Shown here: one piece after another, positions 3,535 to 24,203 of the stretch
Layout of the letters: every line of letters starts with the position of its first letter
Position numbering within the stretch: position 1 is the first letter of the stretch
From: Gammaproteobacteria bacterium
GTDB lineage: Bacteria > Pseudomonadota > Gammaproteobacteria > Eutrophobiales > Eutrophobiaceae
Assembly: GCA_965221695.1 (NCBI GenBank)
Contig: OZ244905.1
Coordinates: 3,168,001-3,232,000, forward strand
DNA length: 64,000 bases
Direction of reading: 5' to 3'
The notes under the pieces: generated by a model
Database searches by the model: none
What the model was told of the DNA's origin: nothing
What the model saw: the letters and a program-made list of their open reading frames with translations, nothing else
Program-made: the position numbers and the translations under genes

Positions 3535-5850
3535 ATGAACAAACTACGACTGAATAAATACACGATTACCCGCGTGCTCCTGCCGGCCCTGGCAGGTCTG
3601 CTGATATGCTCCGGTAGCGCCCGGGCGCAGATGCTCGAAGAGATCGTGGTCACCGCGCAGAAGCGTTCCGAAGACCTGCAGGACACACCGGTTGCCGTCA
3701 CCGCGTTCACCGGCGAACAACTGCAGCAGGTGGGCGTCGTCGATTCCATCGGGCTGAGTAATGTGGTGCCCAACGTGACTATCGGAACCGAGGATGCCAG
3801 GGACGCAATATTTATCAACATACGCGGCATATCCCAGTCCGAACGCAGGAACGCCTCGGATTCGACCACTGCGTTCTACATGGACGGCGCGCTGGTGCCG
3901 CGCATGTCCGGCATCAACGCCTACTTCTATGATGTTGAGCGTATTGAAGTGCTGCGCGGTCCGCAGGGTACGCTGTACGGGCGCAACAGTACCTCGGGTG
4001 TGGTCAACGTGATCACAAAAAAACCCGACCTGGAAGCGATCGGAGGCGACCTCCAGGTAGGTTATGGCAATTATGATGCGGTTGACGTAAAGGGCGCGCT
4101 GAATGTGCCGTTTTCTGACAGTATCGGCGCCCGCGTGGCGTTCACCTATAATGAACGGGACGGTTACCGGGATAACGGACCGCTGGTTGCCGATGGAGAC
4201 GACTTAGATGATATCGGCGTGCGCGGTCACCTGCTGTGGGATATCGGCGAGTCTACCTCGTTGCTGCTCTCCGCGGATTACTATGAACACCAGGGTGTTG
4301 GCCCGGTAGGGGCACAGGTGGAATGTCCCGACAGCGGCTGTAACATCCCGCTCGCCCCCGATCCTGCCCGCGCCAACCCGCTCAATACGGAAGGCTACCG
4401 CGATAATACGGATACCAATTTCAAGCTCCAACTGGACCACTCATTCCCGTTTGCCGACCTGACCTTCATCGGTTCCTACCGGGATCATGAACGGGATTAC
4501 CTGATGGACACAGACGGCACCGGCGCTTCGGTATTTCTGCCGCCGGCAGGCAGGCTGGTCGCGATCGACACCACTGTCGTGGAGCAGACGGAGTCAGAAT
4601 CTTTCTCAGCCGAGCTGCGGCTGAATTCCAACTCGGACAGCCGCCTGCAATGGATCCTGGGTGGCTTTTACCTGGATGAAGATATCGCCGGTGATTTTCG
4701 TTATCAACCGGTGTTGCCGAACGGTTTGCACCTGAACGTGCAGTTTGTCGACAAGGGTTTCAACGTGGAGTCGTGGGCCGTTTTTGCCAATGCTTCCGTG
4801 GATGTCACCGATCGCTTCACCCTGAACGGCGGTGTGCGTTATACGGAGGATGAGAAGGACAAAGGCGGCGTTAACGACCCCGCCAATCCCACCGCCGGCA
4901 GTTATATGTTAGTCAGTATCCGCGAATTCGGCGCGCCGGTGGCGCCGTTTTTTCCGCGCGCCCAGGTGGCGAATCCCTCCTGGAACGAGGTTACCTGGTC
5001 GTTCGGTTTTGACTGGCATCTGAATGACGACATGCTTGCCTATGTCAAGTACAGCAAGGGGTTCAAGTCGGGCGGTTTCAGCCGCGGCAGCGTGGATCCG
5101 TTGAACCCGAGTGGCGCCCCGAACGTGGCAAACCTGACCGTCTACAACCCGGAACAGGTGCTTGCCAGTGAAGTCGGCCTCAAGAGCACTTTCATGGATG
5201 GCCGCGCCCGGGCGAACCTGAGCGCGTTCTGGTATGACTATTCCGACAAGGAAGAGGCAGTTGTGCGTGTGATCGGCGGTATTCCGACCAATACCGTGAT
5301 CAATGCGGGACAGGCGACCATTTACGGGGCGGAACTGGAGGCGACATTATTGTATGGCGCACACGGCGGGCGCATCGACCTTAACCTCGGCTGGCTGGAC
5401 GCGCAATTCGATGAATTCATCGGCCTCGATGATCCGCTGACGCCCGGCCAGGACAACCTGGATCTCGGCGGCAGCGACTTGGTGAATGCGCCGGACTGGA
5501 ATATCAGCGCCACCTGGGTACCTGCCGAATTGGAAATGCTGAACGGGCGCCTGTATCCTCTGGTCCAGTTTTCATTCAAGTCCAGTTACATTACCCGGCC
5601 CCACAACCAGTCTGTCGACCGGCAGGATTCCTATACCCGCACCAATGCGAGCCTGCACTGGGAATCCGTTAACACAGGCCTGTACCTGGAAGGTTTCGTG
5701 CACAACATCGAGAATAAAGACATCCAGACCTCTTCGTTTTGCCAGCAACAGGTCAACGGCGTCGCGGGAACACCCTTCCCCGGGTTGGGCTGTACTCATA
5801 TGTACCAGCCCCCGCGCACCTACGGGGTGCGGCTGGGATACAGGTTCTGA
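3535..5850 (+). CDS. TonB-dependent outer membrane receptor
   Basis: Signal peptide, TonB box-like EEIVVTAQKR, plug motif ERIEVLRGPQGTLYGRN, C-terminal PRTYGVRLGYRF. Confidence 0.93.
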   Translation: MNKLRLNKYTITRVLLPALAGLLICSGSARAQMLEEIVVTAQKRSEDLQDTPVAVTAFTGEQLQQVGVVDSIGLSNVVPNVTIGTEDARDAIFINIRGISQSERRNASDSTTAFYMDGALVPRMSGINAYFYDVERIEVLRGPQGTLYGRNSTSGVVNVITKKPDLEAIGGDLQVGYGNYDAVDVKGALNVPFSDSIGARVAFTYNERDGYRDNGPLVADGDDLDDIGVRGHLLWDIGESTSLLLSADYYEHQGVGPVGAQVECPDSGCNIPLAPDPARANPLNTEGYRDNTDTNFKLQLDHSFPFADLTFIGSYRDHERDYLMDTDGTGASVFLPPAGRLVAIDTTVVEQTESESFSAELRLNSNSDSRLQWILGGFYLDEDIAGDFRYQPVLPNGLHLNVQFVDKGFNVESWAVFANASVDVTDRFTLNGGVRYTEDEKDKGGVNDPANPTAGSYMLVSIREFGAPVAPFFPRAQVANPSWNEVTWSFGFDWHLNDDMLAYVKYSKGFKSGGFSRGSVDPLNPSGAPNVANLTVYNPEQVLASEVGLKSTFMDGRARANLSAFWYDYSDKEEAVVRVIGGIPTNTVINAGQATIYGAELEATLLYGAHGGRIDLNLGWLDAQFDEFIGLDDPLTPGQDNLDLGGSDLVNAPDWNISATWVPAELEMLNGRLYPLVQFSFKSSYITRPHNQSVDRQDSYTRTNASLHWESVNTGLYLEGFVHNIENKDIQTSSFCQQQVNGVAGTPFPGLGCTHMYQPPRTYGVRLGYRF

Positions 5851-6002: not shown

Positions 6003-6386
6003 ATGTTGAAACCCATAATAATAATTCTGGCCCTGGCGGCGCCGTCCTTCGCGGCAGCCGCCGGATTTCCTACAGTTGAAACGGTGAGGCAAGTCGTCAG
6101 TTGCATGGCTGAGCTTGGTGGCCAGACTGATGAGAACCTATTGACTTGCGGGTGCCGGCAGGACGAGATTGAAGCCGGGATGAGTTTTGAGGTTTTCGAG
6201 CAGGCCAGTCTGCAGGAACGTTATAACCGCATGCCGGGCAAACGCGGCGGCCTGTTCCGTGATGATAAAATAAGCAGGGAACAACTCAAGCAGTTAAAAG
6301 ACGTCAGGAAGAAGGCCTTTGCCGCATGTCCCGCAGTCAAGAAGGTGATGCGGGCTGATGAGATGAATAAAGGAACCTCTGAATAA
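6003..6386 (+). CDS. Exported Cys-containing hypothetical protein of a type I recall beside PQQ dehydrogenase loci
   Basis: Signal peptide; FPT...SCM...TCGC pattern; adjacent to the SoxYZ-like gene. The last codons and stop come from a family A repeat. Confidence 0.7.
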   Translation: MLKPIIIILALAAPSFAAAAGFPTVETVRQVVSCMAELGGQTDENLLTCGCRQDEIEAGMSFEVFEQASLQERYNRMPGKRGGLFRDDKISREQLKQLKDVRKKAFAACPAVKKVMRADEMNKGTSE

Positions 6387-6416: not shown

Positions 6417-7283
6417 TCAGTTTACCGCAAAATCTGAAGACCAGGCCGCGTTCTTGGTGTCCGTCGCCTCAACAGTCAATATCCCCTTGTCTTTCGGCAC
6501 GAAGAAGAAACGCAGGCTGGGGTCCATACTGATCGCAAAGGTCAGGATTGCCTTCATTACCGGCGCGCCGTTGTAATTCACATTCAGCGTATTGACGAAG
6601 TGCGCGGGAGGATGGAAGTGGGAACCTATCTTCATCGGCTGCAGGCCGGTGATGTTCGGGTGTTTGATCTTCAGTTGCATCAGGTTCGGTTTGCTGTATT
6701 CGACATCGCCGATCATCTTCATCTTCATCATGCCCATGTTGGCAATGGAATCGCCGATGCTCTTGGGCGGCGGCGCGGAGCAGGCGCCTGTTGCCCGGGA
6801 GAAACTCTTGGCCATGTACAGTTCACCGGTATTCAACTCGGCAATGGCGCGCACATAGGTATGATCGTTGATGCGCACACGCATCGCCAGGTCGGCCTTG
6901 CCGCTGGCCGGGGTAAAATCGAAGATCCCTACCAGCGGGACCGGGTTCTTGTCGATGAAAACATGCATGCGCTTGACATACAACTCATCGGTCTGCGGAA
7001 TCCTGGTGTGGATGGTGACCGGGGCGAGCGCCGCATCCTGAGCACGGTATGGCGCCTTGACCTCCAGGATATTCTGCTCGGCGTCTTCGATGATTTCCCG
7101 GTCCTGGAATGTTGGATGGCGCAGGTTCTCCTCCCATGCCTGGTCCGATAACTTTTGTCGCCAGTCATGGGGCATCACGTCCGCAAACAGCGCCGGCGCG
7201 CAAATGAATAATACGGCAACGGATAAAAACGTTTTCATGGTTGTGTTCAACATACGTTCCTCTTTCATTGACGTGGGTAACAT
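6417..7283 (-). CDS. Quinoprotein dehydrogenase-associated fused SoxYZ-like carrier protein
   Basis: APYRAQDAALAPV, FIDKNPVP, RATGACSAPP (SoxY GGC-like arm), SoxZ-like IKHPNITGLQ and ISMDPSLRF. Divergent from xoxF; start may be 7253 or 7238. Confidence 0.85.
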   Translation of the reverse strand: MLPTSMKEERMLNTTMKTFLSVAVLFICAPALFADVMPHDWRQKLSDQAWEENLRHPTFQDREIIEDAEQNILEVKAPYRAQDAALAPVTIHTRIPQTDELYVKRMHVFIDKNPVPLVGIFDFTPASGKADLAMRVRINDHTYVRAIAELNTGELYMAKSFSRATGACSAPPPKSIGDSIANMGMMKMKMIGDVEYSKPNLMQLKIKHPNITGLQPMKIGSHFHPPAHFVNTLNVNYNGAPVMKAILTFAISMDPSLRFFFVPKDKGILTVEATDTKNAAWSSDFAVN

Positions 7284-7674: not shown

Positions 7675-9678
7675 ATGAGTAAATTTTCCTTCAGTAAATG
7701 GATAATTGTCCCTCTTGCCCTGTTCATGTCTTTGTCAGCTTTCGCCAATGACGGCGTCAGAGAGTTGATGAAAGACCCGAACTACTGGGTATATCCGGGA
7801 GGCAATTATTGGAACTGGCGTTATTCTGAACTTGATCAGATTAACAACAATAACGCCGGTGATTTGGTGGCTGCGTGGACGTTCTCGACAGGACGCCTGC
7901 AAGGCCATGAGGGAGGTCCGTTGGTCCTGCCGCCCAGTGAGACGGGTCTGGCAACCGATCATCTGTATATTCACGCGTCATTCCCGAATGATGTGTTCGC
8001 GATCGATCTTGAGACCCTCGAGATCACCTGGGACTTCGTGCCCCCGCAGGACGCTGATGCAACCGTTCCCAAGATGTGTTGCGATATCGTGAACCGCGGT
8101 CTTGGCTACAGCATGGGCCAGATTTACCTGCAAGCAGCCGACACCACTTTGTATGCCTTGAACCCGATGGACGGCAGCATTATCTGGCAGACAAAGAACG
8201 GCGCCGACATCTCTGACGACCTGGTTGGTCCCAGCGCTGACGGCAGAGGCTATGGTCCGCATAACGGCATGACCAACACCAATGCCCCGCACCCGATCAA
8301 GGACAAAGTCTTTACCGGCTGCTCCGGCGCCGAGTTTGGTGTGCGTTGCTGGATCGCGGCTTTCAATGCCAGCGATGGCAGCCTGGCATGGCGTGCGTTC
8401 AGCATGGGTCCGGATGAAGACATCCTGTTTGACGAAAACACCACGTCCATGGGGCAACCGGTTGGCGCCGATTCTTCCCTGAAGACCTGGTGTGCGTTCG
8501 ATGCCGAAGTTGGCACCGGTCATAGCACCTGGGGTAAAGAAGCCCTGCGCGCTAATTCCGCTGAAGAGCGTCTCTGCAAAGAGACTTCCGACCAGTGGAG
8601 GATCGGCGGCGGTTCCGTATGGGGCTGGTGGCCTGCCGATTTCGATGAGAACCTGATGTACTACGGCAACGGCAATCCCGGCACCTGGAACCCGGTCGTA
8701 CGTCCCGGCGACAACAAGTGGTCCATGACCATCTTCGCCCGCGACATCGACACCGGTGTGGCACGCTGGGTTTACCAGATGACGCCCCATGATGAGTGGG
8801 ACTACGACGGCGTTAACGAGATGATCCTGGCTGACATGACTGTAAAAGGCGAGGAGAACGTGCCGTCCCTGGTTCACTTTGATCGGAACGGTTTTGCTTA
8901 CACCATGAACCGTAAGACCGGCGACCTGCTGGTAGCTGAGAAGTATGACCCGGCCGTTAACTGGGCAACTCATGTTGACATGAAGACGGGTTATCCCCAG
9001 GTCGTTAATGAGTTCAGCACTCACTTCAACGGCCAGGACGTTACCTCCAAGGACGTCTGCCCTGCAGCATTGGGCACCAAGGACCAGCAACCTGCAGCCT
9101 ACTCCCCGCGTACCGGACTGTTCTATGTGCCTACAAACCATGTTTGTATGACCTATGAGCCTGTCAGCTACGACGCAGGCGGTGTGACCTACGAACAGGC
9201 AGCCGGCAGTTGGTATGTGAATGCCAACCTGACGATGTATCCGGCAGGCCAGGTACTGGGTAACGGCACGACCAACATGGGCAATTTCATTGCCTGGGAT
9301 GCCGGCGAAGGCAAGATCGCATGGTCTATTCCCGAGCGTTGGTCGGTCTGGAGCGGCGTATTGACAACCGCCGGTGACGTAGCTTTCTATGGTACGCTTG
9401 AAGGCTATGCAAAAGCGGTTGATGCCAACAGTGGCAAACTGTTGTGGCAGTTCAAGACCCCGTCAGGCATTATCGGCAACTTCCATAGCTGGGCCCACAA
9501 GGGCAAGCAGTACGTTGGTGTGCTTTCCGGAATCGGTGGATGGGCCGGCGCTGTTGTGGCCATCCCGGTTCTGCGTGACATGTCCGGCGATGCGGCCCTC
9601 GGCGCAGTTGGCGGCTATCGCGCCCTGTGGAACTCCACACGTAACAGTGGCGTGTTGATGGTGTTCAGCCTGCCGTAG
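7675..9678 (+). CDS. xoxF: Lanthanide-dependent PQQ methanol dehydrogenase (XoxF type)
   Basis: Signal peptide, vicinal CC (MCCDIVNRG), metal Glu (GAEFGVR), Asn (GNPGTWNP), and HDEWDYDG with the extra Ln-binding Asp (DYD at 8800-8808). Strong RBS GAGGAGG. Confidence 0.92.
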   Translation: MSKFSFSKWIIVPLALFMSLSAFANDGVRELMKDPNYWVYPGGNYWNWRYSELDQINNNNAGDLVAAWTFSTGRLQGHEGGPLVLPPSETGLATDHLYIHASFPNDVFAIDLETLEITWDFVPPQDADATVPKMCCDIVNRGLGYSMGQIYLQAADTTLYALNPMDGSIIWQTKNGADISDDLVGPSADGRGYGPHNGMTNTNAPHPIKDKVFTGCSGAEFGVRCWIAAFNASDGSLAWRAFSMGPDEDILFDENTTSMGQPVGADSSLKTWCAFDAEVGTGHSTWGKEALRANSAEERLCKETSDQWRIGGGSVWGWWPADFDENLMYYGNGNPGTWNPVVRPGDNKWSMTIFARDIDTGVARWVYQMTPHDEWDYDGVNEMILADMTVKGEENVPSLVHFDRNGFAYTMNRKTGDLLVAEKYDPAVNWATHVDMKTGYPQVVNEFSTHFNGQDVTSKDVCPAALGTKDQQPAAYSPRTGLFYVPTNHVCMTYEPVSYDAGGVTYEQAAGSWYVNANLTMYPAGQVLGNGTTNMGNFIAWDAGEGKIAWSIPERWSVWSGVLTTAGDVAFYGTLEGYAKAVDANSGKLLWQFKTPSGIIGNFHSWAHKGKQYVGVLSGIGGWAGAVVAIPVLRDMSGDAALGAVGGYRALWNSTRNSGVLMVFSLP

Positions 9679-9709
9679 ACCGAACAAACTTTTCAAAGTT
9701 TGTGACGAT

Positions 9710-9743
9710 ATCCCCGGTATCATTGGTACCGGGGATTTTTTTT
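9710..9743 (+). terminator. Intrinsic terminator after xoxF
   Basis: ATCCCCGGTA-tcattgg-TACCGGGGAT followed by a T-run. Confidence 0.85.
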
Positions 9744-9840
9744 GAACTTATTGAATGCAAGGCCGGTCATATACTGAAATCTGTGGTGACCGGTTATAGT
9801 TGAAAGTCATTGATTTTGACGGCATATCCCTGTACCGTTG

Positions 9841-9870
9841 CAACCTCTGATTTAATCTGAGGTTCCTTAA
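9841..9870. repeat. Family A terminal palindrome upstream of the cupredoxin gene
   Basis: caacctctgatttaatctgaggttccttaa, preceded by the atccctgta segment of the element. Confidence 0.7.
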
Positions 9871-9901
9871 TAATAATTCAAGATTTAAGAGGATTTGGAA
9901 T

Positions 9902-10369
9902 ATGTATTTGAGAAGTCTTTTTGTTGGTTTATTCCTGCTGGGTTCCATACAGGTATCCGCCCAGCAGATTCATGTGATTAACGCAGAAGCGCGTATCTTC
10001 AACCCGGATGTCATTTATGTACAACCCGGGGATAACGTGAGATTTGTCAACATGACATCCCATGACGCGGTATCGATTAATCAGGTCCCGCTTCCCGACG
10101 GCCAGGTGTTCGAGGGAATGCTACCTGAAGGCACCGAGGGCTGGAAGAGTAGAATGGGTGACGATTTTACGTTGCAACTGGACGTAGAGGGTGTGTATCC
10201 CTATGTGTGCATTCCCCATATCGGCTTCGGAATGGTGGGTGTCATTGTAGTAGGCGAGCCGGTTAACATAGACGCCGCGATGGACGCTGCGAGAGCCAAC
10301 CTTAAGGGTCCCTACCGCCGGCTTATCGGCAAGATCCTCAAGGTGCAACGAGCGGCGAAAAAAGGGTAA
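9902..10369 (+). CDS. Periplasmic type-1 blue copper protein (pseudoazurin/plastocyanin family)
   Basis: Signal peptide; FNPDVIYVQPGDNVRF, upstream His (TSHDAVS), C-x2-H-x4-M loop (YVCIPHIGFGM), pseudoazurin-like C-terminal helices. No CxxCH. Confidence 0.9.
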   Translation: MYLRSLFVGLFLLGSIQVSAQQIHVINAEARIFNPDVIYVQPGDNVRFVNMTSHDAVSINQVPLPDGQVFEGMLPEGTEGWKSRMGDDFTLQLDVEGVYPYVCIPHIGFGMVGVIVVGEPVNIDAAMDAARANLKGPYRRLIGKILKVQRAAKKG

Positions 10370-10374
10370 TAACA

Positions 10375-11241
10375 GTGAAAAAATATCTGCTGGTGTGCTT
10401 GTTGTTGATGCCTGGCGCTTCCGCAATGGCGGTCGATGTCGGAGAAATGACCGTGTTGAAGGTATGCGCCGACCCGTTCATGCTGCCTTTTTCCAATCGC
10501 AAGGAACAGGGTTTTGAGAACAAAATAGCCGAGTTGTTTGCCGAGAAGCTGGGAGTGGACCTGCAGTACGAATTTTTTCCCCAGAGGATTGGCTTCATCC
10601 GCAATACTCTCAGGGCAGAATCCGATTCAGGTTCCGGCTACAAGTGCGACCTGGTGATGAGCGCGCCGGTTAATTTCGAACGGGCTGCTGCGACAAATCC
10701 GTATTATACGTCTTCCTATGCGTTGGTATTGGCAAAGGGGCGGGGCATGGATGATATCACTTCGCCTGAAATGCTGGTCGAAAAGGTTCAAGGCGGTCTG
10801 AAAATAAGGCTCGGCGTCACCGATCGAGGCCAGGACCAGTTCTGGGCGGCCGCGAACAACTTGATGGGGAGTATTGTGCCGTATCAGGGACAACCCGGCG
10901 ACCCCGAAAAGTATCCGGGCAAGACCCTGACCGAAGATATACTTGCCGGGAAAATCGATGCCGCGATTATCTGGGGACCCATCGCAGGCTATTTTGCCCA
11001 AACCATGGAAAGTGGCGAGGATCTTATCCTTCTGCCGTTAACTGATGATCCCACAAATCCCTACCTGAAGTTTACATTTACCGTGGCCATGGCAGTCAGA
11101 CACGGGGAACAGGAATGGCGTGACAAGGTGAACCAACTCATAGCCGAAAACCAGACGGAGATCAACGCCATTATGGAAGATTACGGTGTGCCGTTGTTAC
11201 CGCTGGAGAAAATCGAGATACGGGAAGATGATGATGATTAG
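10375..11241 (+). CDS. xoxJ: XoxJ/MxaJ-family periplasmic binding-like protein
   Basis: LKVCADPFMLPFSN, GFENKIAEL, GFIRNTL, CDLVM, IDAAIIWGPIAGYFA, MAVRHGE, YGVPL. Confidence 0.9.
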   Translation: MKKYLLVCLLLMPGASAMAVDVGEMTVLKVCADPFMLPFSNRKEQGFENKIAELFAEKLGVDLQYEFFPQRIGFIRNTLRAESDSGSGYKCDLVMSAPVNFERAAATNPYYTSSYALVLAKGRGMDDITSPEMLVEKVQGGLKIRLGVTDRGQDQFWAAANNLMGSIVPYQGQPGDPEKYPGKTLTEDILAGKIDAAIIWGPIAGYFAQTMESGEDLILLPLTDDPTNPYLKFTFTVAMAVRHGEQEWRDKVNQLIAENQTEINAIMEDYGVPLLPLEKIEIREDDDD

Positions 11242-11272: not shown

Positions 11273-12040
11273 ATGTATAAAGGCTGGCAACTTGCATTTT
11301 ATGCGCTATGCTCTCTGTGGCTGATAGCAGCCGTGCCGGTTGTTGCCGAGGATGACAGTGGGGACGTGGAAGTGAAGGGCGCCACTCTTGGCAGAATGGG
11401 TGACCCCGCTGCAGTAGATCCGAATACCTTTGAGTTTGCCGACGCGGAGGTCAAACTTTGGCTGGATAATCACCTCAGGAACATAGGCAGTCCGGGCCGG
11501 CTCTATTACGACTTCGTCAAGAGCGGGACTTACGAGAAGGGCTTCAGCGATTCCATCTACCTGGATATTCTCAAGCTCAATGAGGATGGCAGCAAGGATG
11601 CGAACCTGGAGTTCTTCACTGCAGAAAGACAGCAGCAACCGCGCCGCGACAACCTGGTCGGCATCACCGGCAACCCGGTGCTGGTCGTATACATGCAGGG
11701 CGACGTGTACGAGATGAACCGGCTGACCAACGGCAGTTGGCGTTATTTCCAGCGGCGTATCAAGTCAGCGTTTGCCGAAGAAGCGAAAGTCGAGCCGGTC
11801 ACCTTTGAATATGACGGTATGGAGATGACCGGCGAAAAAATTTCCATCACCCCGTATATCAACGACCCCAGGCGCAGGCAATTCGCCGAGTTTGCCACCA
11901 AGCTGTACGAGTTCATATTATCCGATCAAGTCCCCGGGAAACTGTACCAGATCAAAACTGTCATTCCGGCAGGCTCACCAGACAGCGAACCGCTGATTGA
12001 AGAGGTGCTGACCCTGCAAAGCGCAGAATTTGCTAACTGA
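11273..12040 (+). CDS. Exported hypothetical protein, probably PQQ-dehydrogenase associated
   Basis: N-terminal hydrophobic signal after ATG 11273; co-oriented after xoxJ; no recognisable catalytic motif. Confidence 0.7.
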   Translation: MYKGWQLAFYALCSLWLIAAVPVVAEDDSGDVEVKGATLGRMGDPAAVDPNTFEFADAEVKLWLDNHLRNIGSPGRLYYDFVKSGTYEKGFSDSIYLDILKLNEDGSKDANLEFFTAERQQQPRRDNLVGITGNPVLVVYMQGDVYEMNRLTNGSWRYFQRRIKSAFAEEAKVEPVTFEYDGMEMTGEKISITPYINDPRRRQFAEFATKLYEFILSDQVPGKLYQIKTVIPAGSPDSEPLIEEVLTLQSAEFAN

Positions 12041-12205: not shown

Positions 12206-13027
12206 TCACCTGGCCGTATTGAGCAATACCATGATTTCGCCCTTGCCGTCGTTAGCAAGGTCGCCGGTATAAAGGCGTACTTCCGGGCCGAAATTGCGAA
12301 AGAACCGGTAGCGGCTTCCCATCAGCGACAATTGCTTGAAAAACAGTCGCAGGTATTCCATCTTCAACGCGCCGCAGTCTGTCAGGGTGGCGCCGATCCG
12401 GCTTGGCCGCCTGCCCAGGATGATACTCCCGCGCTTCATCCCGTAGCCGGGCAGCTTGCCGGCTTTGCCCAGGATCAATATCGTGCCGGCAACCATACCG
12501 GAGCCGCTGAAATCGCCCGCATCACCGCCGATCATGATCATGCCGCGCCGCATCCTGTCGCCGATACGGTTTCCGGCATTGCCCCAGACCGTGATCAGAC
12601 CGTCCCGCATCCCGTAAGCGCCGGTGGATGTGCCGGCCCCGATGTAATCGCCGGCGTCACCCTCCACGTCAATCCGGCCCCACTCCATATCACAGCCCAG
12701 CCACTCGCCGCAACTGCCGTTGACTTTGATTGCGCCGCCGCGCATACCGTGGCCGAGATGGCTGCCGCCATGGGCCTTGACGTCGATCTGCCCGCGGGTC
12801 ATCTGCGCGCCTATCCGGGTTACCAGTTCCGTGGTGCGGCGTAACTCGATATGTTCGGGATTTTCCCCGCTGATGGAAAACAGGTCGCCGACCCGGGCGG
12901 GCCGAGCGCCATAGGTGAGTTCGATATCGGCAATATTGTCCGCCGCCGACAGCCGGTCCGGTGTCAGCGCCGACAAGTCCAGCAGCCGCTGAGGTTTTTT
13001 CTTCAGGGTGAAGATCAAGGGTTTCAC
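12206..13027 (-). CDS. fhcC: Formyltransferase/hydrolase complex subunit C
   Basis: GltB/FwdC beta-helix repeats (GxxMxxGxIxVxG), GDRMRRG; last gene of fhcBADC. Confidence 0.9.
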   Translation of the reverse strand: MKPLIFTLKKKPQRLLDLSALTPDRLSAADNIADIELTYGARPARVGDLFSISGENPEHIELRRTTELVTRIGAQMTRGQIDVKAHGGSHLGHGMRGGAIKVNGSCGEWLGCDMEWGRIDVEGDAGDYIGAGTSTGAYGMRDGLITVWGNAGNRIGDRMRRGMIMIGGDAGDFSGSGMVAGTILILGKAGKLPGYGMKRGSIILGRRPSRIGATLTDCGALKMEYLRLFFKQLSLMGSRYRFFRNFGPEVRLYTGDLANDGKGEIMVLLNTAR

Positions 13028-13920
13028 CGTAAAATGTCCCTCAGGTGAAAATGGTAAGGTCCCAATTTGCCGCCGTAATTGCCAGCGCCGACTCGATAGA
13101 TGCCCTTGTCGGGTCCGTTTTCGCAGACCGCTTCGATGCCTGCGCGCATGGCCTCGCTGATCGCGCCTTCGCTGAGGCCATCAATGACGATCTCCAGCAC
13201 GGAACCGATCTCTTCGGTGAGCTCACTGTTTACCCGGCCTTTCAGGGTTGGGCAGAACAACTCGTTGGTCGATGCCGGCAAAAACGAGTACTTGGATCCC
13301 ACCTTGGAGCCGGACCCGACGATGCCGCCGGGGAACGTGGTGACTGCGCCTTCCACTGCTCTGATGGCTTTTACCGCTTTTTCACAAGCATTCAGGCCGT
13401 GGCGGGAGGTTTTGGCCATTACCAGGAAGTTGCCGCCACCAATGGCGGGGACCACGCCGGTGGTCTCTTCACACAGGAATTCGCCATGCATCACCGGGAT
13501 GCGCCAGTAGCGGATGCCGCGCAGTATCTTTGAGATCTGGTAACCGTCGCCGAAATATCTCAGGCTTTTGCCCAGGGGCAACATGGTGTCGCTGTGGGTG
13601 CCGGCAAAACAGGCGCTGGTCGCGGTGGTCATTACCGACTGCCCGACGCGCCGGGTAAGCTGGTCCGCCAACTGGGATTTGGACATCGCAAACATGATGA
13701 TCGCCACACCGGGCCTGCCGTCAGGGGTTTCATCCGGCCTGAGCTCCCGTTCGATGTCCGCCTCGCAACCGCAGGCGATCACGGACGAGGCGAAACCGGT
13801 CAGCGAGTTGGCTGCGATATAGGCATACTTCATCGTCATGGCGGTAATGATCAGCCGCGTTGCCTTCATAGGGAAGGCCTCGGCAAAAGTATCATCAATG
13901 CTTACACCGTTAATATTCAT
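13024..13920 (-). CDS. fhcD: Formylmethanofuran--H4MPT formyltransferase (Fhc subunit D)
   Basis: IDDTFAEAF, GFASSVIACGCEA, TPDGRPG, FGDGYQISK, SGSKVGSKY, AGNYGGKLG. Confidence 0.93.
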   Translation of the reverse strand: MNINGVSIDDTFAEAFPMKATRLIITAMTMKYAYIAANSLTGFASSVIACGCEADIERELRPDETPDGRPGVAIIMFAMSKSQLADQLTRRVGQSVMTTATSACFAGTHSDTMLPLGKSLRYFGDGYQISKILRGIRYWRIPVMHGEFLCEETTGVVPAIGGGNFLVMAKTSRHGLNACEKAVKAIRAVEGAVTTFPGGIVGSGSKVGSKYSFLPASTNELFCPTLKGRVNSELTEEIGSVLEIVIDGLSEGAISEAMRAGIEAVCENGPDKGIYRVGAGNYGGKLGPYHFHLRDILR

Positions 13921-13953
13921 GTTAAGGTATTCTCTGTGACCTCTGTGGCTATG

Positions 13954-15603
13954 TTACTTGCAATCATGTACCAGCAGTGAATGTTGATTACAGGCTTCCA
14001 GCTCGTCTCGGCCGATCTTGAAATTCTCCAGGCTCATGGTCATGTACCTGTCAAAATACTGTTTAAGCGGTTTCTCAATGCCCGCGTCGTAGTCCGGTTC
14101 GACCACGTGAGTGGAGGTGGCCGGGATGGCGCAGACTTTACCGTCCCTGACGCAGAGTTCGCCGCGCTTGAATACGTATTCCGGTCTGCTGAACATGGTC
14201 TCGCGGTTGGCGTCGGGTTGGTACACGGTGATATCCGCGGTGGCGCCGATGCCCAGGTGGCCCAGGTCCCTGAGCCCCAGGCTTCTTGCCGGCGCGGCGC
14301 GGGTGATAATCGCGATCTCGTACAAGGAATATTCCCGGTCGATCGAGGACAGGATGCTGGCATCGGCTGCGTCCTTGTTTATCGTGCCCAGCATGTCGTC
14401 GCGAAAACCCTTGTCCATCAGCAGCCTGACCAGGTGCGGGTAAAAGGTAAACGGCGCGCCGTTAGGGTGGTCGGTGGTCATGAACACGCGCCAGGGATCA
14501 TCGACGAGCAGGAATATTTCGAGGCCGATGCACCACTGCAACGCGTTGACAAAATTCTTGTCCCGGTAACGGAACGGCACAACACCGCAGCCTGCCTCGC
14601 ATTCAATGTCCATGCACATCCATTTTTTCGGATGGGCATGAACATGCCCCTTATGCTGTATCATCGTGTCCGCCGACGCGGTGACCGTCTGGCCGAACAT
14701 GACCTGGCCGACATCTATCGACAAGTTTGCGTTCCTGTTCACTGCCTCCGCTACCTGCGCGGCCGCGGACGAGAATTTTCTGTCGCCCTCCTGCCCGTAG
14801 CTGTGGAATTGCACGTGGGTCAGGTGCACCGGTCTGCCCTCGGCCGCAGCAATGGTATCGAGTGTTGTCCGGAAATTGCCGGGCACGCCCAGGTTGCAGG
14901 CATGCACATGCAGGGGATGGGGTACGCCGGTAGCATCCAGCGCATCCAGCAATGCGGACAGAATCGCCCGCGGCGTCAGTCCGTAATGTTTGTTGGATTC
15001 ATCCAGGTCCAGTTTTCTCTGGTTGAACTTGAACGCGCTGATCCCACCCGGATTGACCACCTTGACTCCCATCGCCCGGGTTGCCTGTATGGTCCAGGCC
15101 ACGTAATCGTTAACAAGCTGCCGGTCCTTATTGCGTTCAAGCAGGCGCAACAGGAAGTCATCATTACCCAGCAGAACATAGGCGCCCGTGTCCAGCATGG
15201 GCGTATCGGCCATTTCCAGGTGCGAGTGACGGGCGTTCATCGGCATCATCGCCGGTTCGAAACAAGAGGTATAACCCATTTCGGCATAGCGGTAGCCGGT
15301 GACGAAACTGCTTGGGGCGATAGCGCCAGATCCCGAACGCAACAGCTTGTCCGATGCGGTGATATTATTGCTGTGGTCATCCGCCAGCAACATCCTGGCG
15401 ATGTTGACCTTGCCGCCGCCGATATGGGTGTGGATATCGATACCGCCCGGCATGACGATGCGTCCGTCCAGGTCCACCACGCGGTCGATCCTGCTTGCGC
15501 GCGCCGGATCGGCGAGCCTGCCGTCCTTGATATACAAGTCCATGATGCTGCCGTCTATCCCGTTTGTCGGGTCGTAGACCTTGCCGCCTTCGAGCTTGAT
15601 CAT
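13954..15603 (-). CDS. fhcA: Formyltransferase/hydrolase complex subunit A (amidohydrolase)
   Basis: Start MIKLEGGKVYDP at 15603 (ATGA overlap with fhcB stop); PGGIDIHTHI, KVVNPGG, HVHACNLG, TTDHPNG. Confidence 0.93.
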   Translation of the reverse strand: MIKLEGGKVYDPTNGIDGSIMDLYIKDGRLADPARASRIDRVVDLDGRIVMPGGIDIHTHIGGGKVNIARMLLADDHSNNITASDKLLRSGSGAIAPSSFVTGYRYAEMGYTSCFEPAMMPMNARHSHLEMADTPMLDTGAYVLLGNDDFLLRLLERNKDRQLVNDYVAWTIQATRAMGVKVVNPGGISAFKFNQRKLDLDESNKHYGLTPRAILSALLDALDATGVPHPLHVHACNLGVPGNFRTTLDTIAAAEGRPVHLTHVQFHSYGQEGDRKFSSAAAQVAEAVNRNANLSIDVGQVMFGQTVTASADTMIQHKGHVHAHPKKWMCMDIECEAGCGVVPFRYRDKNFVNALQWCIGLEIFLLVDDPWRVFMTTDHPNGAPFTFYPHLVRLLMDKGFRDDMLGTINKDAADASILSSIDREYSLYEIAIITRAAPARSLGLRDLGHLGIGATADITVYQPDANRETMFSRPEYVFKRGELCVRDGKVCAIPATSTHVVEPDYDAGIEKPLKQYFDRYMTMSLENFKIGRDELEACNQHSLLVHDCK

Positions 15604-16835
15604 CCGGGTTGGTCCGTGAGTTGTGAGATGATGCGGTTGATGATCCCGGCGGCGCTCTGCGAACCGGAATCTCTGAGCTTTTTCAGGGGCAGGCTGATGA
15701 CTCCGTCCGTCCGGAACAGCGTGCCGGCATGATCGATGCCCGGGATGCCTGTCGGAATGAAAACGTCGGCGCTGTTCGCGCCGGCACGAAACGGGGATAG
15801 AATCACGGTTGGGACGCCCAGGGATGGAGGCGCTTCCTCGGTAAACCCCGATATCCACAACAAGCTGTCTATGTCCGCCGTGTGTGCGCCGGCGCCGGAC
15901 GGACGTCCATCGTTGAAATTCAGCGCCGCCGGGAAGCCGGTCTGCCAGGTGGCGACGCTGTGCCAGGCTGCGCCGCCATTGCTGCCGCCCAAGGATAAAC
16001 CGGCAAATCGTTGTTTTGCGTTCAGGTCGCGCAACAAGTCCTGCGCCGAACCGATGACCAGGTCGGCCTGGTCCGCCGGGAGGGCTGCCGCGTTCCATAC
16101 CAGTACGCCGTATTGTGCGTCTCTGACCAGGTCGGCAACCTGTTCCAACTTACGCGCTTTTGGTGCGGATATAGGACTGCAATCCGGCAGTTGCCGGCCG
16201 GTCAGTCGGGCGCGCAGCAGCGCCAGGTTTTCGGCAACCTCATCGTTGCGGCCGGAAATGATGAGGCGCTCATGGCCGTCGCAGCCAGCCAGTTCAGTCC
16301 GCCCCGGCCGGCCCAGGTAGGCCAGTTTTCTGCCGGCCGCAGCAAACAGCGAATGGGGTGTGTTGATGAAGCGCTCGATGAACCGGGGATAAGCGCCGGT
16401 CACGTTATTACCGATAAAGATAATCGTGTCCGCCCGATTTTTTACTTCGGCGAGAGTGGTCGTGATCCCGCCCCGGGACTGCAGCGCTTTCAGGTTACGC
16501 CAGGCATGACCTTCAGTGGAATGGCGTAGCGCGGCATCTGTCTTTTCGGCCAGTTGCAATGCTGCGCGCAAGCCGTTAACGTCTGTGCCAAGACCCGCAA
16601 TCAGCGGTTTATGGGACTTATGCAGGAGTTTTGCCGCGGCGCTGATGGCCCGTTCCACGGTCGCCGGCGCGCCTTTTATGGCCGCTTCAGGCATCGGCAG
16701 CGGGGCGGAAAAGCCCTGCTTGGCAAGTCGGCACGCATTCGCGGAGACCCTGAGTTGCCGCCTCTTTGTGCGCAGCGTCAGGTCATCGCATAACAGGCTG
16801 CAAAACGGGCAGGTTACATTTACTGCTGCTTGCAT
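15600..16835 (-). CDS. fhcB: Formyltransferase/hydrolase complex subunit B (degenerate FwdB homologue)
   Basis: CPFCSLLCDD..C, TLAEVKNRAD, WQTGFP, GIDHAGTLFRTDG; lacks the SVCHGP metal-ligand and RGHxNV motifs. Confidence 0.9.
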   Translation of the reverse strand: MQAAVNVTCPFCSLLCDDLTLRTKRRQLRVSANACRLAKQGFSAPLPMPEAAIKGAPATVERAISAAAKLLHKSHKPLIAGLGTDVNGLRAALQLAEKTDAALRHSTEGHAWRNLKALQSRGGITTTLAEVKNRADTIIFIGNNVTGAYPRFIERFINTPHSLFAAAGRKLAYLGRPGRTELAGCDGHERLIISGRNDEVAENLALLRARLTGRQLPDCSPISAPKARKLEQVADLVRDAQYGVLVWNAAALPADQADLVIGSAQDLLRDLNAKQRFAGLSLGGSNGGAAWHSVATWQTGFPAALNFNDGRPSGAGAHTADIDSLLWISGFTEEAPPSLGVPTVILSPFRAGANSADVFIPTGIPGIDHAGTLFRTDGVISLPLKKLRDSGSQSAAGIINRIISQLTDQPG

Positions 16836-18199
16836 CAATCCAGCAAGGCCAACATTTCGCTGACACGGGTGTACTTCTCCCTGGGTTTGCCCGCGGATTC
16901 GCCTCGGGCAATCTCGGTATCATCGATTTTTTTCCAGTCTGTAAAGCTGATGTGGCGGATATTGCGCCGGTCGAGAAGTTCGTAGCAGGCTTCAGCGCCG
17001 CGCCGCTGTTTACCGTCGTCCAGCCGGTCCAGGTCTTGCAGCAGCATCCCTACTGTTTCCACGCTGTCTGCCTTGTTGGTGCCGATGATGCCGGTGGGGC
17101 CGCGCTTGATCCACCCGGCGGTGTACAATCCCGGTTCCACCGTTCCGTCCCTGGTGATCCTGCCTTGATCATTGGAGAAAACCCCGCGGGATTCGTCGAA
17201 CGGCACGCCGGGCATGGGCACGCCGTGGTAGCCGATACTGCGAAAGACAATGCCGGTATCCAAGGTAAATGTTTCTCCGCTACCTCTTGCCGATTGCCGA
17301 AACGCCTCTCCCGATAAGCTGTTTTTTTCTATCAGCAAGCGTTCCACCTTGCCATCGCCGAGTATTTCTCTGGGGCTCTTCAGGAAAGTGAAAATACAGC
17401 GCCTGTCCTTGGCTGTCTCCCGGTCGGCAAATCCGCAGAACAGGTCATAGATTTTTTTGTTGCCGGTATTTCCCAGTTCAGCTTCGCTTTCCGGGTTCAG
17501 CGCCAGTTCGCCCGCGTCTATCACCGGGTCACAGGTGTCCAGGACACCGAATTCCTTCAGCTCCTTGGACGTGAACTTGGCTTGCGCCGGCCCGCGGCGG
17601 CCAATGACGTAGATATTTTTTACCTTGCTCTCGGCCAGCGCTTCCAGTGCATGTGCAGCGATATCCGTATGCTTCAATTCATCAACGGTCTTGGCCAGGA
17701 TCCGGCTCACGTCGGCGGCCACGTTGCCCTGGCCGATTATGACGGCGGTTTCATGGGACAGGTCAAACTGCCTGTCGCGATAATCGGGATGGCCGTTATA
17801 CCAGCCGACAAATTCCGTTGCCGTGTAACTGCCCTGCAGGTCTTCACCGGGGATGCCCAGGCGTCGGTCGGTTTCAGCCCCGCAGGTAAGAATCACCGCG
17901 TGGTGGGCGGCGCGCAATTCGTCAATGCTGATGTCCTTGCCCGCAGTCACGTTTCCGAGATAGTTGAATTGTTCCGCCTCGGCAAGCCTGGCGTAGACCT
18001 TGATAGCCTGTTTCAGTTTCGGGTGATCGGGCGCAACGCCGCTTCTTACCAGGCCATATGGTACAGGCAAGCGTTCGAACATGTTGATGCGGACCTGGAT
18101 ATCGGCTTTGATCAGCGCGTCAACCGCGTAAAATCCACTGGGGCCGCTACCGACGATAGCGACTGTCAGCGGATTGTCTGGTGTTCCTAATCGAGTCAT
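16835..18199 (-). CDS. Ferredoxin--NADP+ reductase, adrenodoxin-reductase/FprA type
   Basis: AIVGSGPSGFYA, PYGLVRSGVAPDH, FVGWYNGHP, IGQGNVAADV, GRRGPAQAKFT, GWIKRGPTGIIGTN. Stop overlaps the fhcB start (TGATG). Confidence 0.92.
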   Translation of the reverse strand: MTRLGTPDNPLTVAIVGSGPSGFYAVDALIKADIQVRINMFERLPVPYGLVRSGVAPDHPKLKQAIKVYARLAEAEQFNYLGNVTAGKDISIDELRAAHHAVILTCGAETDRRLGIPGEDLQGSYTATEFVGWYNGHPDYRDRQFDLSHETAVIIGQGNVAADVSRILAKTVDELKHTDIAAHALEALAESKVKNIYVIGRRGPAQAKFTSKELKEFGVLDTCDPVIDAGELALNPESEAELGNTGNKKIYDLFCGFADRETAKDRRCIFTFLKSPREILGDGKVERLLIEKNSLSGEAFRQSARGSGETFTLDTGIVFRSIGYHGVPMPGVPFDESRGVFSNDQGRITRDGTVEPGLYTAGWIKRGPTGIIGTNKADSVETVGMLLQDLDRLDDGKQRRGAEACYELLDRRNIRHISFTDWKKIDDTEIARGESAGKPREKYTRVSEMLALLD

Positions 18200-18951: not shown

Positions 18952-19761
18952 TTATCCTGCATATAATAGTATTTCTCCCCGGTTCATCTCAACACTGTCG
19001 CCGCAATAGCGTTTGTACGAACCCTGCAGGTATTCTTCGGCGCTTGCGAATACCCGGGACAGGCGCAACAGGTACAGCGTCATGTAGCCCGGCCGGTAAG
19101 TGCATGAATAGCTGAACGTGGGCAGTAACGGCGCATCTTTCATACTGATGATGGAACCCCGTTTCATCCCTGCGCCGGTGCGGATGCCGAGTTCCCCGAA
19201 TACGAAAATACTGCCGGAGAGCATGTTGACGCCGGTGAAGTCGCCGCTGTTGCCGGCGACGGCGATTAGCCCGTTACGCATTGCGTTGCCGGTCTCGTTG
19301 CGAACATTGCCGTGAATGATGATTTCCCCGCCGGTCATTCCCATGCTTGCGCCCCGGTAAGCGCTGCCGACCAGGTGACCGGCATTGCCGCGGATTTCAA
19401 TTCTTCCTCCGGACATCTCCGGCCCGACCCAGTCGGCGGCATTGCCGTCGATGAGGATTTCGCCGCCGCTCATGGCAGCGCCCAGGTGTTCGCCGACATC
19501 GCCTTCGACCCGGATCGTCCCCTGTGACATGCCGGCGCCGATGAATTTCGCCCGCTCCAGGTGATCACCTTGCAGTTCAATGGTTCCGTCATAGCTGCCG
19601 GCAACATTGAAAAAATCGCCGATTACCCGGCGTTCGCTGCCGTGCATCACCACCAGTTTCTCCACGCCCGCCGCATCCTGGCCGATAAGCCGGGCAGGAG
19701 TGATGTTGTCTGCCTCTATGGGCACATCCGGCGCGGCAACCTGTTTCAGTATTAAGGGCAT
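18952..19761 (-). CDS. fwdC: Formylmethanofuran dehydrogenase subunit C (second set)
   Basis: PIEADNITP, beta-helix GxxMxGG repeats, GSAYRG, GAGMKRGS. Confidence 0.88.
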   Translation of the reverse strand: MPLILKQVAAPDVPIEADNITPARLIGQDAAGVEKLVVMHGSERRVIGDFFNVAGSYDGTIELQGDHLERAKFIGAGMSQGTIRVEGDVGEHLGAAMSGGEILIDGNAADWVGPEMSGGRIEIRGNAGHLVGSAYRGASMGMTGGEIIIHGNVRNETGNAMRNGLIAVAGNSGDFTGVNMLSGSIFVFGELGIRTGAGMKRGSIISMKDAPLLPTFSYSCTYRPGYMTLYLLRLSRVFASAEEYLQGSYKRYCGDSVEMNRGEILLYAG

Positions 19762-19842
19762 GTCAGAAATCCGTACGAGGCACTAAGTAACTTCTGATTA
19801 ACTCAGCGGTTACTACGATACAAGGATGTTTCCCTGATTTCA

Positions 19843-20730
19843 TCATTTCAGGTCAAGGTCATGCAGGTTGATCCTGTATTGTCCGAGATTGCCGCCGTAA
19901 TTTCCCGCGGAGACCTGCCTGATGCCGGGTTTTGCCGCGGCCCGTATCCCTGCGGCCATGGCCAGTCTGACTGCATTCTCGGTGAGGCCGTCGATCACGA
20001 TTTCCAGCGCGCAATTGACATCCGCCGGCAGGCTGCTGCCGGTCACGGCCTTCAACGTCGGACAGTAGGCGTCGTTGGTGGATGCGGGCAGGGTCTTGTA
20101 GCGTGATCCCACCTTGCTGCCGCTGCGCACGACGCCATTGGGAAACGGCAGGATGATATCGCTGATGGTCCCCATCGCCCGGGTTGCGGCGCCGGCCGCG
20201 GCCAGGGTTTTCTTCTCGTTCGTGCCCAGTATGATGATATTGCCGCCGCCCACCGATTTCTGCACGGCGAACGATTCTTCCACGGTGAATTCACCGTCCA
20301 TGACCGGGATGCGCCAGAAACGCCGCTCCCCCAGCTTCTTGCTGCCCTGGAAGCCGTCGCCGAAATAACGCAGTTGGGAACCGACCTGGACCGTTTCGCC
20401 GGCATCAAGGCCATTGAAACAGGCCGTTGTCGGGCAGGTCATCACGCATTGGCCGATGCGCTCCACCAGGCGTTTCCCTACCGATGCCTTGTCCATCGCG
20501 AATAACAGGATGCTGGCGCCGGGACGGCGGTCCGGCGTCTCATCCGCGGACAGAAATCGTTCAATGCCGGCCTCGCACTTGCAGCCGATCACCGATGTCG
20601 CAAAGCCGGTCATCGATCGCGCCGCAGCCTCGCTCCATTGCCGGGTGGCTGCGGTGACGATCACCCGCGCCCCCCACATGCTGAATGCCTCGGCAAAGGT
20701 ATCGACGATTTCCGTGGATTTTATCTTCAT
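19843..20730 (-). CDS. ftr: Formylmethanofuran--H4MPT formyltransferase (second copy)
   Basis: IVDTFAEAF, GFATSVIGCKCEAGIE, RIGQCVMTCPTTAC, RSGSKVGS, SAGNYGGNLG. Confidence 0.92.
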   Translation of the reverse strand: MKIKSTEIVDTFAEAFSMWGARVIVTAATRQWSEAAARSMTGFATSVIGCKCEAGIERFLSADETPDRRPGASILLFAMDKASVGKRLVERIGQCVMTCPTTACFNGLDAGETVQVGSQLRYFGDGFQGSKKLGERRFWRIPVMDGEFTVEESFAVQKSVGGGNIIILGTNEKKTLAAAGAATRAMGTISDIILPFPNGVVRSGSKVGSRYKTLPASTNDAYCPTLKAVTGSSLPADVNCALEIVIDGLTENAVRLAMAAGIRAAAKPGIRQVSAGNYGGNLGQYRINLHDLDLK

Positions 20731-22364: not shown

Positions 22365-22403
22365 TATTATCTGCCTTCCATCAACTATTTCAGCCTGCGC
22401 CGG

Positions 22404-23768: not shown

Positions 23769-23858
23769 GATTGCTCCTCATGGGGTCAGACCGGCCCGGA
23801 TAGCGCTTTGGCCTACGCAAAATCAAGGTTAAGAAACCTCTGTCGATTATTAAGCATT

Positions 23859-24203
23859 CTAACTGATTTTTTCCACCTGGACAGAAATATGTTTGGACAG
23901 CGGCATGCCACTGCCAGCGGTGTCACTTTCCATCAGGCGGCTGGATGTGGGGCCGTAGGCAATGAAAATCATGCCTTCAGGCAGGTCGCCGGCTTTTTTT
24001 GAGACGCAGGTAACAACAACTTCTCCCACATGGTTTTTCAGCCGCAGTTTATCGCCATTGCTGAAACCGAGGCGAGCCATCTCGTCCGCATTGATTTCAA
24101 CGGTAGAAGTAACCTCCCGGTACTCGTCACCCAGTTTTCCCTTGTTTAGGGAGGTCCCCTGTTTACTGGACCGCCCGGGTATCAATAACATGGTTTCCGG
24201 CAT
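23859..24203 (-). CDS. fwdD: Formylmethanofuran dehydrogenase subunit D (molybdopterin dinucleotide-binding domain)
   Basis: PGRSSKQG, GMIFIAYGP, TAGSGMP..K; first gene of the fwd operon. Confidence 0.88.
   Translation of the reverse strand: MPETMLLIPGRSSKQGTSLNKGKLGDEYREVTSTVEINADEMARLGFSNGDKLRLKNHVGEVVVTCVSKKAGDLPEGMIFIAYGPTSSRLMESDTAGSGMPLSKHISVQVEKIS

Follow-up and report, generated by a model that had tools for sequence, protein, structure and literature searches.

The window analysed here is a stretch of 64,000 nucleotides (positions 3,168,001 to 3,232,000 of contig OZ244905.1, assembly GCA_965221695.1) from a gammaproteobacterium of the order Eutrophobiales. It carries a methanol oxidation gene cluster, xoxF-cupredoxin-xoxJ, in which a type-1 copper protein occupies the slot of the cytochrome gene xoxG. 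Based on the position of this cupredoxin gene, its near-exclusion with XoxG-like cytochromes, its co-movement with xoxJ and the exchange of the two domains at a second locus in relatives, we consider it likely that the cupredoxin is the direct electron acceptor of XoxF. A widespread branch of uncultured, mostly marine bacteria would then probably pass the electrons of methanol to copper first.

Proteins of the cluster and the search for XoxG

As stated in the first-pass annotation, a lanthanide (Ln)-type xoxF, a cupredoxin gene and xoxJ follow one another on the + strand, with 5 bp between the cupredoxin stop codon and the GTG start of xoxJ. xoxF (7675-9678, +) encodes a Ln-type pyrroloquinoline quinone (PQQ) methanol dehydrogenase of 667 aa belonging to a distinct XoxF5-like subclade, which scored 588 bits against TIGR03075 (cut-off 480). 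Its closest solved relatives were the XoxF entries 6DAM (709 bits) and 6OC5 (677 bits), while MxaF-type large-subunit entries reached at most 476 bits and PedH-type 244 bits. The protein carries vicinal Cys135-Cys136, Glu220 and the lanthanide D-x-D motif as D376-Y-D378, where three MxaF-like outgroup proteins read D-Y-A, and we infer lanthanide-dependent methanol oxidation. A family-specific insertion (residues 273-301, window 8491-8577) is bounded by Cys273 and Cys301 and probably forms a disulfide loop; many relatives also show a C-P-x-C loop near residue 527. The periplasmic binding protein XoxJ (10375-11241, +; 288 aa) scored 241 bits against TIGR03871 (cut-off 212).

The gene between them (9902-10369, +) encodes a pseudoazurin-like type-1 copper protein of 155 aa, with a signal peptide placed by eye at about residues 1-20. 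It matched PF00127 above the cut-off with the ligands H54 and C103-x2-H106-x4-M111, while its score against the pseudoazurin equivalog TIGR02375 was 81 bits, below the cut-off of 109.85. The structure model (predicted local distance difference test, pLDDT, 89) shows a plastocyanin-like barrel followed by C-terminal helices 123-133 and 136-154. The top 27 Foldseek matches were all pseudoazurins; template modelling (TM) scores of 0.63/0.79 to pseudoazurins were obtained. A full set of type-1 copper ligands was present in 50 of 51 aligned cupredoxin sequences. Midpoint potentials of pseudoazurins lie at about +200 to +300 mV, and a copper site in this range would be compatible with the proposed transfer from XoxF. 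Locus L141, a 2-kb contig, carries three tandem pseudoazurin-like genes, one of which aligns Gln at the axial Met position. In two genomes (G052 and G130) the cupredoxin is split across frames, through assembly errors or as pseudogenes, and a metagenome scan with the cupredoxin of genome G038 as query returned two unrelated loci only.

The basic C-terminal helix described at first is present in the model as helix 136-154 and is kept in the family, R139, R140 and K144 being invariant in alignment A1. The re-engineered docking interface that had been proposed between this helix and acidic insertions of XoxF found no support. The insertions are real but barely acidic, with net charges of -2 (residues 172-198) and -1 (268-310); among XoxF relatives their charge runs from -3 to +6, their length varies, and several cupredoxin-linked XoxFs lack them. 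Mean XoxF charge was -10 for cupredoxin-linked (n=28) and -15 for cytochrome-linked proteins (n=17), with -32 in the window's genus. The idea of electrostatic docking was rejected as unsupported, since the insertions are near neutral, the cupredoxin-linked XoxFs are not the more acidic ones and the mature cupredoxin is itself near neutral (charge -2).

The genome is closed (one contig of 3.54 Mb, 96.85% complete), encodes PqqE and holds xoxF in single copy. Genome-wide searching for xoxG and mxaG, suggested as a check on the annotation, recognised neither gene. TIGR03874 matched nothing in the genome; as this profile detected all four reference XoxGs (63-266 bits), it is sensitive for that XoxG group. 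TIGR03872 and TIGR04494 gave only hits that stayed under their cut-offs, to CcoP and to haem domains within two quinohaemoprotein dehydrogenases. When 4 reference XoxGs, 20 family XoxG-like proteins and 23 further haem proteins were used as queries, only CcoP, c4 and fused haem domains were matched. By profiles and reference queries, the genome thus holds no orthologue of a XoxG1/MxaG, XoxG3 or PedF-type cytochrome. The statement that no c-type cytochrome gene lies near the cluster was also confirmed, as no open reading frame (ORF) of at least 60 aa with a CxxCH motif occurs in the window, nor anywhere from genome position 3,136,558 to 3,248,856.

The genome as a whole contains 82 CxxCH ORFs, most of them spurious frames, of which the plausible ones were classified. 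Small mono-haem cytochromes each stand beside an enzyme of their own (two flavin adenine dinucleotide oxidases, a tryptophan tryptophylquinone (TTQ) dehydrogenase, two molybdenum (Mo) enzymes and a flavoprotein), and only c4, c5 and c' were left without an enzyme neighbour. The cupredoxin is the sole PF00127 match of the genome, and a search with PF13473 gave no match. A haem-rich chain is kept, including bc1, cbb3, c4 and c5, a subunit II of aa3 type that carries haem c, and numerous further cytochromes of c type. The idea of a heme-free module that would spare iron could therefore apply to the first transfer step only and does not extend to the chain downstream of it.

Conservation of the arrangement and the XoxF clade

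The order consists of one family with 126 genomes, of which 92 contain xoxF, 104 the cupredoxin and 90 both. The survey of synteny that had been suggested showed the cupredoxin directly downstream of xoxF, within 1.3 kb, in 79 of the 92 xoxF genomes, and no XoxG-like gene was found within 10 kb of xoxF in any of the 92. The 13 exceptions include eight genomes with xoxF at a contig end (some probably so by a truncated match), one (G005) with a 2.2-kb insertion between xoxF and cupredoxin (L099, 4813-6989), three with xoxF-xoxJ and an empty slot (G023, G057, G088) and one with xoxF alone (G050). In the xoxF-negative genera g21, g30, g31, g34 and g37 the cupredoxin was found in none of 14 genomes. 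A genome scan gave 68 cupredoxin loci, of which 54 precede xoxJ, one follows xoxF at a contig end and 13 lie elsewhere; chance adjacency was rejected on these counts.

The XoxG-like profile matched in 51 of the 126 genomes of the order and in none of the 23 genomes of the window's genus (this genome and 22 others). Among the 79 genomes with a cupredoxin in the slot, 47 have no XoxG-like match at all. A plasmid of Azoarcus KH32C carries xoxF-cytochrome c-xoxJ with, downstream, homologues of the two unnamed ORFs that accompany the present cluster. Because a cytochrome c stands there with the same downstream ORF, the cupredoxin slot is, judged by gene order, homologous to the xoxG slot.

XoxF trees of 76 and 55 sequences were built with family members thinned and three MxaF-like proteins as outgroup. 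Mapping of the arrangement on these trees, likewise suggested at the outset, placed all cupredoxin-slot XoxFs in a single clade (FastTree support 1.0; Shimodaira-Hasegawa-like approximate likelihood ratio test, SH-aLRT, 94 in a fast IQ-TREE run). Two indels mark every member, a YEPVS loop and, after GPLV, an insertion of 8 residues (near residues 86-95); neither occurs in any XoxF with a cytochrome neighbour. In MxaF, the loop corresponding to YEPVS probably lines the funnel of the active site. The clade is a long-branched subclade nested among proteobacterial plasmid XoxFs, in a tree composed without labelled XoxF1-4 references. Some xoxF-xoxJ loci of the sample, which we take to be of methanotroph type, fall outside it.

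A close relative (locus L095) encodes a XoxF 92% identical to that of the window. Since L095 bears the prefix JAAXHV01, which the available excerpt of PMC13200403 uses as a UBA4486 genus name, the window's lineage appears to be the family UBA4486. The xoxF of UBA4486 is classed as xoxF5 in an excerpt of bioRxiv 10.1101/2025.06.11.659106, and its transcripts exceeded those of Methylophilaceae in Guaymas Basin plumes according to a portion of PMC12120059.

Beyond the order, 400 genomes sampled evenly across the class gave 41 with a XoxF-like match, a tally that includes the unpublished G164, which enters no other count; 40 of the 56 XoxF-like loci listed were fetched. Carrier profiles were searched in 38 chosen genomes, picked by XoxF score and not by carrier; G517 and G338, whose xoxF is partial, were put in the clade by genus and score. 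The 19 clade genomes outside the order, from nine families, showed the cupredoxin in 18 cases and a XoxG-like cytochrome in 4, as against 2 (weaker, and away from the xox genes) and 15, respectively, for 16 genomes of 12 families with canonical or more distant XoxF. Family f5, which is not part of the clade, contributed two genomes, both with the cupredoxin and one with a XoxG-like match. In 14 of the 19 clade genomes xoxJ comes immediately after the cupredoxin, and xoxF stands ahead of this pair in 7 of them but at another site in the other 7; the cupredoxin lies away from the xox genes in G409, G251, G316 and G464 and is absent in G311. Judged by these gene orders, the cupredoxin moves with xoxJ when xoxF relocates.

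A second locus found in relatives brings the two kinds of carrier together. It is divergent from a peptidase gene, presumably M20-like by its motif, and is usually followed by the same 176-aa gene. Its product is a lipoprotein that combines an acidic linker with a redox domain at the C-terminus and often shows the shared motif V-x-Y-Q-E-E-I-Y-x-N-W-P-Y. Among 84 peptidase-anchored loci, the tethered domain was a cupredoxin in 18 and a XoxG-like cytochrome in 18, while one locus had both and 47 had neither. Inspection of 40 of these loci showed that genera g48 and g49 each contain both forms, which intermingle on the peptidase tree and have tether motif and flanks in common. Because the domains swap on a common tether inside these genera, cupredoxin and XoxG-like domains can evidently fill the same function in these cells. 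The locus was not found in the window's genome. Ahead of the tethered carrier there is often a very small lipoprotein that terminates in this motif as well (loci L312-L331 and L347-L350; compare G135:C11:35000-39000 with G113:C23:87500-91800), and a tethered locus with a cupredoxin also occurs in family f192 (L380, L382).

The initial proposal that the cupredoxin stands in for XoxG is thus upheld as far as slot, near-exclusion, co-movement with xoxJ and domain swap are concerned, while direct electron transfer is what we infer from them. We give about even chances to the broader statement that a XoxF subclade spanning at least 10 gammaproteobacterial families, among them one with strong deep-sea transcription, switched from a haem to a copper acceptor, with the two surface indels as an adaptation and with interchangeable domains swapped both in the xox operon and on the tethered lipoprotein.

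Electron transfer and competing explanations

In the proposed scheme, Ln- and PQQ-dependent XoxF would oxidise methanol to formaldehyde, which would enter the neighbouring tetrahydromethanopterin (H4MPT) pathway. A soluble periplasmic pseudoazurin-type protein would have replaced XoxG as the immediate acceptor. Reduced PQQ (PQQH2) would be reoxidised by Cu(II)-pseudoazurin in two one-electron steps, with XoxJ as a helper as in canonical systems, and the reduced pseudoazurin would deliver its electrons to an aa3 or cbb3 oxidase, directly or via c4/c5 or the haem-c domains of the oxidase. Where a relative keeps an orphan XoxG-like cytochrome, either carrier may be able to take the place of the other.

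Several observations weigh against the cupredoxin as acceptor, or against its being the only one. Unlinked orphan XoxG-like cytochromes, 27-44% identical to reference XoxGs, are retained in 32 of the 79 slot-cupredoxin genomes and constitute the main argument against an exclusive cupredoxin role; a XoxG-like cytochrome is likewise kept in 4 of the 19 clade genomes outside the order. The slot is empty (xoxF-xoxJ) in the clade members G023, G057, G088, G311, G316 and G464, and in G088 and G311 a profile search of genomes 95% complete found neither the cupredoxin nor a XoxG-like match. Kin are not independent, so that the carrier counts overstate their statistical weight. The profiles derive from XoxG3-like references, and XoxG2/XoxG4-type cytochromes are excluded in this genome solely via the CxxCH listing, with c4 and c5 as possible acceptors. 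There are four unrelated XoxG groups, XoxG4 being without homology to the others according to an excerpt of PMC5723320; the groups are called unrelated also in the available part of PMC5874918, where an unlinked XoxG4 is directly reduced by XoxF in Methylomonas. The tether swap supports replacement, yet it also indicates that both of its domains can serve as later, membrane-tethered carriers. Finally, a strong terminator-like hairpin with a T-tract (intrinsic type; 9710-9736, +) stands between xoxF and the cupredoxin gene, and such a terminator parts the two in 63 of 66 loci. Of the two clade genomes without any carrier match, G088 is represented by locus L197, and in G311 (L241) another class I cytochrome c follows the ORF on the opposite strand.

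A similar hairpin downstream of xoxF occurred in those 63 of 66 cupredoxin loci and in 4 of 10 xoxG loci. Because of the terminator-like hairpin after xoxF, the cupredoxin gene probably belongs, with xoxJ and the ORF that follows, to a lower tier of expression.

These points bear on the possibility that the pseudoazurin is a second-tier carrier, XoxF first reducing a cytochrome encoded elsewhere (an orphan XoxG-like protein in relatives; here c4, c5 or a XoxG2/XoxG4-type cytochrome) and the pseudoazurin relaying electrons to the oxidases. Cytochrome cH or azurin has this relay function in classical methylotrophs. In G028, a closed genome of 1.5 Mb with a XoxF outside the clade and no XoxG-like match (L077:7479-15783), a related cupredoxin heads a petABC operon and faces xoxF-xoxJ 6 kb off; this is possibly an independent recruitment, and a place at the head of petABC suits a general shuttle. 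The orphan genes in 51 of 126 genomes of the order, the uncoupling of the cupredoxin from xoxF by the terminator and the precedent of an unlinked XoxG4 (in the accessible portion of PMC5874918) also favour such a role. Nevertheless, we regard it as unlikely: a XoxG-like gene was not found in any of the 23 genomes of the genus, nor in 15 of the 19 clade genomes outside the order, the cupredoxin sits exactly in the xoxG position and moves with xoxJ, and canonical clusters place their second carrier (c2-like) upstream of xoxF and not in the slot.

Classical partners of cupredoxins are encoded in the genome, which is a further point against the acceptor reading: four TTQ light chains, a NirS-like protein and a di-haem peroxidase. 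The cupredoxin might accordingly act in place of an amicyanin for TTQ amine dehydrogenases, or supply NirS and peroxidase with electrons, and be placed in the xox cluster for one-carbon (C1) co-regulation only. The light chains lie at G000:C1 347396, 890907, 2436706 and 2989643, each beside a heavy-chain-like gene; beside none of the four was an amicyanin or azurin gene found, and one light chain is followed by a mono-haem cytochrome c. TTQ genes occur in 21 of the 22 other genomes of the genus. The NirS-like cytochrome cd1 (L311:5433-7511; G000:C1:645432-647510) has an extra N-terminal haem c domain and adjoins a Crp/Fnr-type regulator (by eye). Its gene is the only PF02239 match at E<=1e-80, without a close nirN/nirF copy, and was seen in 2 of the 23 genomes of the genus. 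Pseudoazurin of Paracoccus donates electrons to nitrite, nitric oxide and nitrous oxide reductases, as reported in an excerpt of PMC12848317. Within the order, TTQ genes (42 of 126 genomes) and NirS-like genes (27 of 126) occur too sporadically to account for a cupredoxin present in 104 of 126. G068 has TTQ genes and no cupredoxin match, nirK was not found in the window's genome, and XoxF would be left without an acceptor in this genus. We judge this explanation very improbable, and denitrification as a general explanation was rejected, given no nirK here and NirS-like genes in 27 of 126 genomes. As it is the sole soluble cupredoxin found in the genome, the protein probably serves the TTQ amine dehydrogenases, the NirS-like protein and the peroxidase in addition to XoxF.

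Since in broken clusters the cupredoxin accompanies xoxJ and the unnamed ORF, and not xoxF, and belongs, past the terminator, to the same transcription tier as these two, a helper function together with XoxJ (activation, maturation or metal handling) with no net electron transfer was considered as well. Complete type-1 copper ligands in 50 of the 51 aligned sequences speak for a redox function, as does the swapping of the domain for a cytochrome c on a common tether, and a pure helper has, in our estimate, hardly any likelihood. Direct acceptance of electrons from XoxF by the cupredoxin is the explanation we prefer.

Genomic neighbourhood and comparison with known systems

Several neighbours of xoxF-cupredoxin-xoxJ belong to the conserved cluster. 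A secreted, unnamed protein is encoded after xoxJ (11273-12040, +; the longest ORF starts at 11186, ATG 11273 being the likely start), and in Azoarcus KH32C, whose xoxF-xoxG-xoxJ cluster is canonical, a homologue (28% identity) likewise sits after xoxJ. Upstream, a quinoprotein dehydrogenase-associated SoxYZ-like carrier (6417-7283, -; TIGR04557 above cut-off) is divergent from xoxF and conserved in the cluster, as is a small, unnamed secreted protein (6003-6386, +) with 26-32% identity to counterparts in canonical xox clusters (L211, L214). Both unnamed proteins are common to cupredoxin-type and xoxG-type clusters, and neither matched a Pfam or NCBIfam family. A search of the ESM Atlas with the ORF after xoxJ gave only clusters of hypothetical proteins, with a recognition value under the reliable level. 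Many genomes of the genus, this one included, have a TonB-dependent receptor (here 3535-5850, +) upstream of the cluster, which is a candidate for metal uptake.

Downstream lies a fhcBADC-like operon for H4MPT-dependent formaldehyde oxidation (12206-16838, -), marking a C1-oxidation island around the cluster, to which fhc, fae, mch and genes of H4MPT synthesis belong. A second formylmethanofuran dehydrogenase-like operon (window 18952-24203, -) stands beside it, with a ferredoxin and a reductase-like gene between the two. Its C, Ftr, A and B genes scored above cut-off and are accompanied by a FwdD-like gene, while the B subunit of the fhc operon scored below cut-off; the second operon may encode a Mo/tungsten enzyme instead of the usual hydrolase complex.

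No description of a xoxF-cupredoxin-xoxJ arrangement was found in the literature searched, which covered titles and the beginnings of abstracts; an earlier mention may exist. The word 'azurin' is absent from the main texts of bioRxiv 10.1101/2025.06.11.659106, bioRxiv 10.1101/814418, PMC10875860, PMC12120059, PMC13200403, PMC5874918, PMC5723320 and PMC6277846. If the proposed role is correct, the first step would use Ln and copper instead of Ln and iron, which bears on the trace-metal needs of marine methanol oxidation, and the clade would offer a natural test of acceptor-lanthanide matching. The locus supplies a specific, small and easily expressed acceptor candidate with a visible colour change.

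Among known copper proteins, the pseudoazurins (Sinorhizobium 3TU6, Paracoccus 1ADW, Achromobacter 1BQK, Methylobacterium 1PMY) share the fold, the two C-terminal helices and the His/Cys-x2-His-x4-Met ligands. The present protein differs by only 22-32% structural identity to them, by a longer C-terminal helix and by its tie to xoxJ and not to denitrification genes. TTQ amine dehydrogenases pass electrons to amicyanin or azurin, and type II quinohaemoprotein alcohol dehydrogenases to azurin. These systems resemble the proposed one in leading from a periplasmic quinoprotein to a blue copper protein, but they use TTQ or an internal haem c relay, whereas in the present case the direct reductant of copper would be a type I PQQ enzyme devoid of haem. 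According to the available text of PMC7391723, a cytochrome cL-type acceptor always accompanies the PQQ alcohol dehydrogenases of methylotrophs. If the reading is true, a XoxF that has a cupredoxin as its partner would be, as far as the literature searched shows, a first among haem-less type I PQQ alcohol dehydrogenases.

The XoxF5 of gammaproteobacterial methanotrophs with an unlinked XoxG4 is similar to the present system in being XoxF5-like and having no cytochrome alongside. In those methanotrophs nothing occupies the slot and XoxF reduces a cytochrome encoded at a distance, while here the cupredoxin fills the slot; the acceptor of gammaproteobacterial XoxF5 is openly debated, to judge from an excerpt of PMC6277846. 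Most similar is the canonical xoxF5-xoxG-xoxJ module (Methylorubrum extorquens AM1 and plasmid loci of Azoarcus KH32C, Mameliella, Sinorhizobium and Roseomonas), in which xoxG and xoxJ are required for XoxF function in AM1 according to the part of PMC7391723 at hand. It likewise combines a Ln-type XoxF and XoxJ with a small, periplasmic one-electron carrier encoded between them and has the same accessory genes (the SoxYZ-like carrier and the two unnamed secreted proteins). The canonical carrier is a haem c protein, whereas here it is a type-1 copper protein and no XoxG was found in the genome, and canonical XoxFs lack the diagnostic indels that the subclade of this XoxF carries. By its gene content, the locus is thus predicted to work like a XoxF-XoxG-XoxJ module, but with a copper protein in place of the XoxG by which that module is defined.

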